The translations under genes were made by a program, and so were the position numbers. Shown here one piece after another: positions 22,845-22,905 of a stretch of 64,000 nt of DNA (position 1 is the stretch's first letter; each line of letters opens with the position of its first letter). The DNA lies in the sequence record PQ666540. One strand, given 5' to 3'. Source of the DNA: Shigella phage sb2. The notes beneath the pieces were generated by a model. It was not told the DNA's origin. It worked only from the letters and a program-made list of their open reading frames with translations, and searched no databases.

Positions 22845-22875
22845 TTTGTGTTCCTCATGTTATGTCAGTAAGATT

Positions 22876-22905
22876 ATTATAACACAACACGAGGGACTTG
22901 TAAAC
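22876..22905 (-). promoter_or_regulatory. T4-type early promoter GTTTAC-N18-TATAAT
   Basis: -35 GTTTAC (plus 22900-22905), -10 TATAAT (plus 22876-22881), then SD and ATG of the 96-aa ORF. Confidence 0.55.

Follow-up and report, generated by a model that had tools for sequence, protein, structure and literature searches.

A near-identical early-promoter cassette at alt.-3 and alc in Tequatrovirus genomes, and the hairpin predicted to pair its spacer with the Shine-Dalgarno sequence

Early promoters of phage T4 have extra conserved positions of unknown meaning (PMC2988021), and two early promoters of Shigella phage sb2 (PQ666540, of which the 64,000-nt stretch analysed is referred to as the window hereafter) are alike over a length that goes well beyond their hexamers, which raises the questions of why a whole promoter together with its leader should be present twice in one phage genome, what the shared sequence does besides recruiting RNA polymerase, and how the second copy came to be where it is.

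A 53-nt unit at two loci

The near-identical 53-bp unit that had been predicted to occur twice is indeed there, with the earlier coordinates off by 1-2 bases only: 50 of 53 bases are common to positions 22853-22905 and 38582-38634 in a pairwise 53-mer comparison, and one extra common T makes this a 54-nt repeat (22852-22905 and 38581-38634, 94% identical; repeat finding, family D10). Exact matches to the first quoted half of the unit (22853-22873 and 38582-38602) and to the second (22880-22905 and 38609-38634) number two each in the 64-kb window, with chance expectations of 0.01 and 0.00, respectively, and all three mismatches between the copies lie in or directly after the -10 hexamer (minus strand, TATAATAA versus TACAGTAG). 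The likeness of the two loci ends at the flanking coding sequences. A search for further copies, covering the whole window on both strands, returned nothing else above 32/53, this best match being the element's own reverse strand, which points to an internal inverted repeat in the element, followed by matches of 30/53 at two sites, one of which is another early promoter. The twins thus have their whole spacer and leader in common, whereas no other early promoter of the window exceeds 30/53, so the 53 bp are not a property of all early promoters, and, as the original prediction had it, the early-promoter consensus alone cannot account for the identity.

Both units were read correctly as minus-strand early promoters of the GTTTAC-N18-TATAAT/TACAGT form, as a generic promoter scan called both sigma-70-type (11/12 for copy 1 and 9/12 for copy 2, both with TGn). 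They are preceded by A/T-rich stretches (...CTAAAAAGTTCAAGATGTA and ...AAAAATTATAAAAAATTTATCC...) and followed by the expected identical leader and GAGGA Shine-Dalgarno (SD) sequence, with the ATG 7 nt (copy 1) or 4 nt (copy 2) after the SD; GTTTAC, an 18-nt spacing by the same convention, TGn, TAnnnT and A/T-rich upstream sequence are all features described for T4 early promoters (PMC2988021). The genes behind the promoters are an alt.-3 homologue and, as had been named, alc (Table 1). Practically the whole intergenic gap is occupied by each copy, the upstream stop overlapping GTTTAC or lying 3 nt before it, and late transcripts could reach copy 1 across both alt genes from a late-promoter consensus further upstream.

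Table 1. Positions of the two cassette copies, their parts, the neighbouring genes and a cassette of the same layout in the window
Feature	Position	Strand	Details
Copy 1 (alt.-3 side)	22853..22905	-	Sequence, exact-match searches, promoter scan, fold, covariance-model match 22842-22905(-)
Copy 1 promoter	-35 GTTTAC 22900-22905; -10 TATAAT 22876-22881; presumed start near 22869	-	
Copy 1 arms	Spacer/5' arm CCTCGTGTTGTGT 22882-22894; 3' arm GACATAACATGAGG 22853-22866	-	
Copy 1 translation signals	SD GAGGA 22852-22856; ATG 22842-22844	-	
Copy 2 (alc side)	38582..38634	-	Sequence, exact-match searches, promoter scan, fold, covariance-model match 38571-38634(-)
Copy 2 promoter	-35 GTTTAC 38629-38634; -10 TACAGT 38605-38610; presumed start near 38598	-	
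Copy 2 arms	Spacer/5' arm 38611-38623; 3' arm 38582-38595	-	
Copy 2 translation signals	SD GAGGA 38581-38585; ATG 38574-38576	-	
alt.-3 homologue	22554..22844	-	96 aa, DUF5498, Pfam PF17602; 100% identical to T4 Alt.-3; served by copy 1
alc, inhibitor of host transcription	38070..38576	-	168 aa; Pfam ALC 4e-91; 97.6% identical to T4 Alc; served by copy 2
Second full-length Alt-like ADP-ribosyltransferase	22905..24962	-	Upstream of copy 1; TAG stop overlaps G of GTTTAC
rnlA (RNA ligase 1)	38638..39762	-	Upstream of copy 2; TAA stop 3 nt before GTTTAC
Late-promoter consensus TATAAATA	27044..27051	-	Motif search; just upstream of alt (24966-27023)
Gene 30.8 cassette	31581..31640	-	Same layout, unrelated sequence; arms UUCCUUUGU / ACAAAGGAG bury the SD; covariance-model match

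The surroundings of copy 1 hold two further observations. Two full-length Alt-like ADP-ribosyltransferase genes of 685 aa each stand there in tandem (22905-24962 and 24966-27023, minus strand), their repeats being ~71-94% identical at a spacing of 2055-2091; T4 retains only the alt.-1/alt.-2 remnants of the second alt gene, which its annotation regards as the beginning of alt duplicated long ago, and the window has the intact form. Between the convergent genes 54 and alt.-3, positions 22528-22549 form a perfect 9-bp G+C-rich hairpin (ATGGGGACC...GGTCCCCAT); on the plus strand a T-run comes after it, and both of its strands were called terminator-like.

The window is that of a Tequatrovirus (~99% identity to, e.g., the phages NBEco003 and pSs-1), and the pair is also present in T4, again in front of alt.-3 and alc, at 52/53 (1/53 positions differing). 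With a 66-nt query, 997 matching places were found in 499 phage records, ~2 each, and in every genome inspected directly the alt.-3 and alc loci have one copy each; the twin pair is a fixed feature across the genus Tequatrovirus.

Predicted pairing of the promoter spacer with the Shine-Dalgarno sequence

Reading the unit as a promoter cassette was right as far as it went, but it overlooked a hairpin in which the spacer of the promoter is bound to the SD. One long stem-loop is predicted for the sense RNA, its 5' arm being the spacer (CCUCGUGUUGUGU...), its 3' arm the leader and SD (...ACAUAACAUGAGG) and its loop containing the -10 box and the presumed start, and this pairing is the likely reason for the spacer and leader being constrained beyond the hexamers. 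As 66-nt sense RNAs, copy 1 folds with -21.4 kcal/mol (z -5.38) and copy 2 with -25.7 kcal/mol (z -4.52), and the T4 copies fold alike, the four sense RNAs of the window and T4 ranging from -21 to -26 kcal/mol with z from -4.5 to -5.4. The antisense RNA folds more weakly (z -2.1 and -3.1) because several of the pairs are G-U, and folding as DNA gives z -1.8 (sense) and -0.9 (antisense) for copy 1, which has no significant structure on either strand, and z -4.3 and -3.2 for copy 2. In a search against Rfam 15, nothing in the whole window reached a family's gathering score, and around copy 2 there was not even a match at E<=1.

The accessibility of the SD was then compared between read-through RNA entering 60 nt upstream and RNA starting 7 nt after the -10 box, the latter being an assumed start, and no mapped 5' ends for the cassette promoters were found in the literature examined; the 5' arm, at promoter positions -25 to -13, is left out of the transcript by any start near +1. 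Opening the SD of 13 alc-type cassettes (the window and T4 copies and those of nine other lineages) takes 7.8-13.9 kcal/mol, as an ensemble cost, on read-through RNA versus 0.5-2.7 kcal/mol on promoter-initiated RNA. For nine cassettes of other types, the read-through cost is 0.3-4.9 kcal/mol, whereas the tenth of them, that of gene 30.8, has an alc-like cost (9.4 kcal/mol in read-through RNA versus 0.2 in its own transcript).

The reading that we favour, and consider reasonably probable, is that of an early promoter placed inside an SD-sequestering hairpin, with a mechanism that is translational. A strong sigma-70 early promoter would have an 18-nt spacer complementary to the leader and SD of its own gene; transcription from this embedded promoter would begin inside the loop, so that the promoter's own transcript would be devoid of the 5' arm and its SD would be free, and alc and alt.-3 would be translated from such RNA immediately after infection. 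Read-through RNA, coming via rnlA or via the alt genes (late transcripts included), would have both arms, which would fold into a hairpin of ~18-22 bp burying the SD and leave the downstream gene poorly translated. The cassette would, in effect, make the translation of an immediate-early gene depend on that gene's own promoter, and alc and alt.-3 are probably translated, if the modelled folds hold, only from their own promoters. The timing classes of T4 omics data fit this mechanism: alc, alt.-3 and 30.8 are classed as early RNA and early protein, rnlA as early RNA and late protein, and the RNA of alt.-1 and alt.-2 as middle, with the Alt protein accumulating late (PMC9697503 supplements), and Alc is described as an immediate-early product (PMC2988021).

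Whether the pairing is kept by selection can be judged from the rnlA-alc junction, whose gap is ~60 bp and whose synteny extends over many genera. Scans of viral contigs with single proteins returned close relatives only, the wider relatives being found via an Alc alignment search instead, and a metagenome scan yielded 13 stretches, four of which were chance matches. The same layout with different, compensating arms is seen at rnlA-alc of at least eight other genera and lineages, and in 28 of the 36 distinct cassettes compared (rnlA-alc junctions of many genera plus two Tequatrovirus alt.-3 copies) the SD pairs with the promoter spacer, at least 10 different arm sequences being represented among them (e.g., TCTCCATTTGGTT/AACCAAATGGAGA in Karamvirus, TCCTCATCAG/CTGATGAGGA in Jiaodavirus and AACCTCTCATTTT/AAAATGAGAGGTT in Bragavirus); in one lineage, an SD of GGGG faces CCCC. 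In an alignment-free test, the mean arm-duplex energy was -19.5 kcal/mol for cognate versus -10.9 kcal/mol for non-cognate arms, a contrast matched by 0 of 100,000 permutations and not biased by the set having been chosen by a minimum-energy fold pairing the SD. That choice does bias "percent paired", which in an ungapped MAFFT alignment of ten cassettes was 92.9% of cells versus 37-46% with the partners slid; four pairs are changed on both sides in this alignment, and its covariation score was reached by 0 of 500 shuffles. In the alignment of a covariance model built from these cassettes, an alignment itself fitted to the model, both-sided changes appear in 12 of 17 pairs, and the model matches exactly three sites in the window, namely the two copies and the gene 30.8 promoter, and the same three in T4. 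RNAalifold predicted no pairs on a plain MAFFT alignment of the 28 cassettes, because the loop lengths differ and the 3' arms fall out of register.

The hairpin is not universal, as no SD-burying structure is present at alc in Mosigvirus, Kanagawavirus, Ac42, Gaprivervirus (which has an extra ORF) and a few further lineages, so the device is dispensable. In the alc region of Gaprivervirus, the extra short ORF, annotated as Alc-like, lies between rnlA and alc and is preceded by a G+C-rich hairpin, and the junction is remodelled, given that no GTTTAC promoter stands directly before alc. Outside Tequatrovirus, moreover, the stems are almost purely Watson-Crick and the antisense strand folds equally well, so that the energies there identify neither the selected strand nor RNA versus DNA as the selected molecule. 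Where the upstream stop overlaps the -35 box, a terminating ribosome might also open the first stem pairs.

Judging from the sequences compared, an arm layout kept with changing sequences across so many genera requires selection, and this is one reason why we regard it as scarcely credible that the twin is a neutral leftover of a recent duplication, or that its arms act at the DNA level as a cruciform or palindromic operator. The two copies differ from each other (1-3 of 53) about as much as Tequatrovirus genomes do, so that age alone could explain their near-identity, and selection is needed for the hairpin, not for the identity of the twins; the arms outside Tequatrovirus, being Watson-Crick palindromes, would also suit a DNA-level role. 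Copy 1, however, has the z values given above as DNA versus -5.4 as sense RNA, and an operator would need a co-evolving protein for each of the at least 10 arm sequences.

Translational coupling is the role suggested by the closeness of the upstream stop to the -35 box (0-5 nt in all lineages) and by the start of the stem 1-5 nt after GTTTAC: the SD of alc or alt.-3 would be exposed only when a ribosome terminating upstream melts the stem, giving expression at a fixed ratio, not silencing. A terminating ribosome keeps roughly 7-9 nt single-stranded, but the T4-type anti-SD bases are 11-18 nt past the stop codon, beyond this footprint, stems of 13-22 pairs would reclose, and rnlA and alc differ in protein timing class, all of which makes coupling very improbable.

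A further alternative concerns transcription, in that the stem-loop might be mainly an attenuator or terminator for RNA polymerase arriving from upstream, with the SD pairing incidental to the cramped gap. Stem-loops between or overlapping -35 and -10 have been described for the promoter-early stem-loop (PeSL) cassettes, and one of them cut lacZ expression as much as rrnB T1 (PMC2839356); in the window, too, the early promoters with their -35 at 31248, 35309 and 46589 (minus strand) have hairpins of -16 to -19 kcal/mol flanking the -10 box and start with the SD free, which means that an SD-independent role exists for the general layout, attenuation or RNA end protection being candidates. The genes of these three promoters are 30.7, a 175-aa ORF without a counterpart in T4 118-140 kb and a 22-aa ORF. 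The same SD-free cassettes, on the other hand, demonstrate that space does not force use of the SD, and the base of the alc-type stem is always anti-SD/SD, even where the SD changes (GGGG/CCCC). A U-tract follows the stem in no lineage (the tails in the window are AACACAAAAUG and CUUUAUGAUG, without a run of U), and a terminator scan found no terminator-like site at either cassette or between the upstream genes and the cassettes, by which an intrinsic (Rho-independent) terminator was rejected. Attenuation as the main role is thus unlikely, albeit it could be an additional one and may coexist with SD masking. RegB cleavage (GGAG) was discarded as a general explanation as well, the T4-type SD GAGGA containing no GGAG.

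Origin of the second copy and exchange between cassettes

The alt-alt.-3 junction is syntenic in Gapriver-, Dhaka-, Mosig-, Marfa-, Karam- and Kanagawavirus, where it has a cassette of a different type, whose SD is free (a short hairpin inside the spacer, with GGA in its loop, is present in five of these six genera), and an alc-type cassette at alt.-3 was found in Tequatrovirus only, which is also the only one of the genera checked to have a near-identical twin. Since the other genera have the alc-type cassette at alc and a different type at alt.-3, the distribution agrees with the promoter-cassette transfer that had been put forward as one origin of the repeat, and we infer by parsimony that the alc cassette probably replaced the original alt.-3 cassette in the Tequatrovirus ancestor. 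In terms of the SD-masking mechanism favoured above, copying of the alc cassette into the alt-alt.-3 junction would have given the near-identical copies, both of which would have changed little since under a double constraint of promoter function and base pairing. In the Tequatrovirus copies read, variation is limited to the -10 box, the loop and four stem transitions, and all four stem substitutions preserve pairing.

The original prediction had also raised recombination between the alt and alc copies, of which nothing is evident: the 499 records contain 997 places, one copy stands at each locus, and, in the five genomes in which both copies were read, the variants are locus-specific (e.g., TACAGT only at alc) and not common to both copies, hence no sign of continuing gene conversion or homogenisation. 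The 15.7-kb interval between the direct repeats contains genes 30 and 31, both called essential in T4, and a deletion between the repeats would remove them. It is therefore decidedly unlikely that the repeat is mainly a recombination substrate or a mobile promoter cassette (PeSL-type exchange, mini-circles) whose identity is kept by continuing gene conversion, a view that would, in addition, leave the covarying hairpin of single-copy genera unexplained. What speaks for such a view is that PeSLs recombine mutually and form mini-circles in RB49/phi1 (PMC2839356), that the cassette was evidently copied once between loci, that a chimeric relative is found in Karamvirus and that T4, compared with the window, has lost part of the alt paralogue next to copy 1.

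Records of Karamvirus and Dhakavirus at first seemed to contain the alc cassette a second time, but exact-arm scans gave one copy per contig. The Karamvirus candidate was rejected after a local BLAST, being an 80% chimera with arms that no longer pair, and so were the extra Dhakavirus matches in the 3-14 kb examined around alc, which are 22-24-nt promoter/leader matches. The Karamvirus case (vB_Ecl_YOG, an Enterobacter phage; 30642-30705, minus strand) is a cassette 80% identical to the phage's own alc cassette, placed at another early gene, with non-complementary arms (-6.5 kcal/mol) and the appearance of a chimera of two cassettes; the same phage has an independent SD-burying promoter hairpin of -23.4 kcal/mol in the 30.x region (-35 at 13005, minus strand). 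In the window, positions 46550-46603, 47275-47328 and 63946-63999 are early-promoter-like cassettes that are mutually 67-78% identical (family D6).

The GGA-loop type of cassette, found at alt-alt.-3 of five other genera and at alc in Mosigvirus, has a 4-5-bp covarying spacer hairpin (e.g., CACAAGGAUGUG). The high-affinity site of CsrA is RUACARGGAUGU, which the GGA loop resembles, the SD being a second GGA; by this analogy, read-through RNA might possibly be silenced by CsrA in those phages.

Known T4-type devices and the meaning of the cassette

The PeSL cassette consists of a stop codon, an AT-rich stretch, -35/-10 boxes, a stem-loop, an SD and an ATG (Arbiol et al. 2010, PMC2839356; Comeau et al. 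2014, PMC4122927), and the structure of the twin cassette agrees with this description throughout, as both copies span the intergenic distance from stop codon to ATG, have sigma-70-like boxes ~17 nt apart with AT-rich sequence upstream, and have a stable stem-loop in one of the five positions recognised, the hairpin enclosing the -10 box with its 5' arm in the spacer. PeSLs, like the twin cassette, have the stem-loop between or over the promoter boxes, contain G-T pairs, are repeated in the genome and have been proposed to be exchanged between copies. PeSL stem-loops, however, have been read as terminators or attenuators, with recombination between copies shown (PMC2839356), and pairing of the SD is not discussed for them, whereas the twin cassette pairs it; PeSLs are also concentrated in hyperplastic regions, with ORFans and indels nearby, whereas the rnlA-alc junction keeps its synteny in many genera. 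Copy 1, for its part, adjoins the alt paralogue partly deleted in T4, and one copying event between loci seems to have taken place. Neither alc, alt.-3 nor SD pairing is mentioned in the two PeSL papers (PMC2839356 and PMC4122927), albeit older T4 literature may hold an earlier mention, and the stem-loops of the PST/T4 paper are just upstream of the promoter, with alc and alt unmentioned (PMC4122927).

The closest functional parallel is offered by T4 e, soc, 49 and I-TevI (also I-TevII/III and Aeh1 mobE), which have an RBS-sequestering hairpin with an internal promoter (PMC3014915). There, the SD and/or AUG is in a helix on the long RNA, as our models predict for the twin cassettes; the promoter is within or beside the 5' strand, and its own RNA is without that strand, as would also hold for the twin cassettes with the start assumed here; and the helix is conserved in relatives (PMC3014915), as it is in alc-type cassettes. 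The internal promoter of e, soc, 49 and I-TevI is, however, late (TATAAATA) or middle, whereas that of the twin cassettes is a GTTTAC-N18-TAnnnT early one, and a motif search found no TATAAATA late consensus within either cassette. As the embedded promoter is early, not late, the temporal logic would be reversed: the known T4 hairpins block premature early translation, whereas the twin cassettes are predicted to confine translation to the RNA of the early promoter. The list of RBS-masking hairpins in PMC3014915 does not include alc, alt.-3 or 30.8, and, with both the PeSL class and the RBS-masking device already known, what appears to be new here is the extension of the known T4 hairpin design to early promoters. 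We put at about even the chances that this amounts to a conserved class of early-promoter cassettes in which the spacer is an anti-Shine-Dalgarno sequence, with alc (in most genera), 30.8 and alt.-3 (in Tequatrovirus) silenced on all read-through, middle and late RNA, and which can be copied whole between loci.

The analysis offers a testable reason for some T4 early promoters being conserved far beyond their hexamers, namely that the spacer doubles as a regulatory RNA arm. It also offers a clean case of a whole regulatory cassette copied between loci ~13-16 kb apart (15.7 kb in the window and 13.2 kb in T4) and then fixed throughout a genus with ~500 sequenced phages, which supports the PeSL idea of portable promoter modules, and, for the engineering of T4-type phages, it means that short intergenic cassettes are not to be treated as simple promoters. 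If the mechanism is true, Alc, the host-transcription terminator, would be limited to the first minutes of infection by RNA structure and not by promoter shut-off alone, and whole-cassette copying would transfer the same regulation to another gene; the T4 device of a "promoter inside an RBS-masking hairpin" would then operate in either temporal direction, the alc-type cassette being a temporal insulator and the mirror image of the device known from e, soc, 49 and I-TevI.
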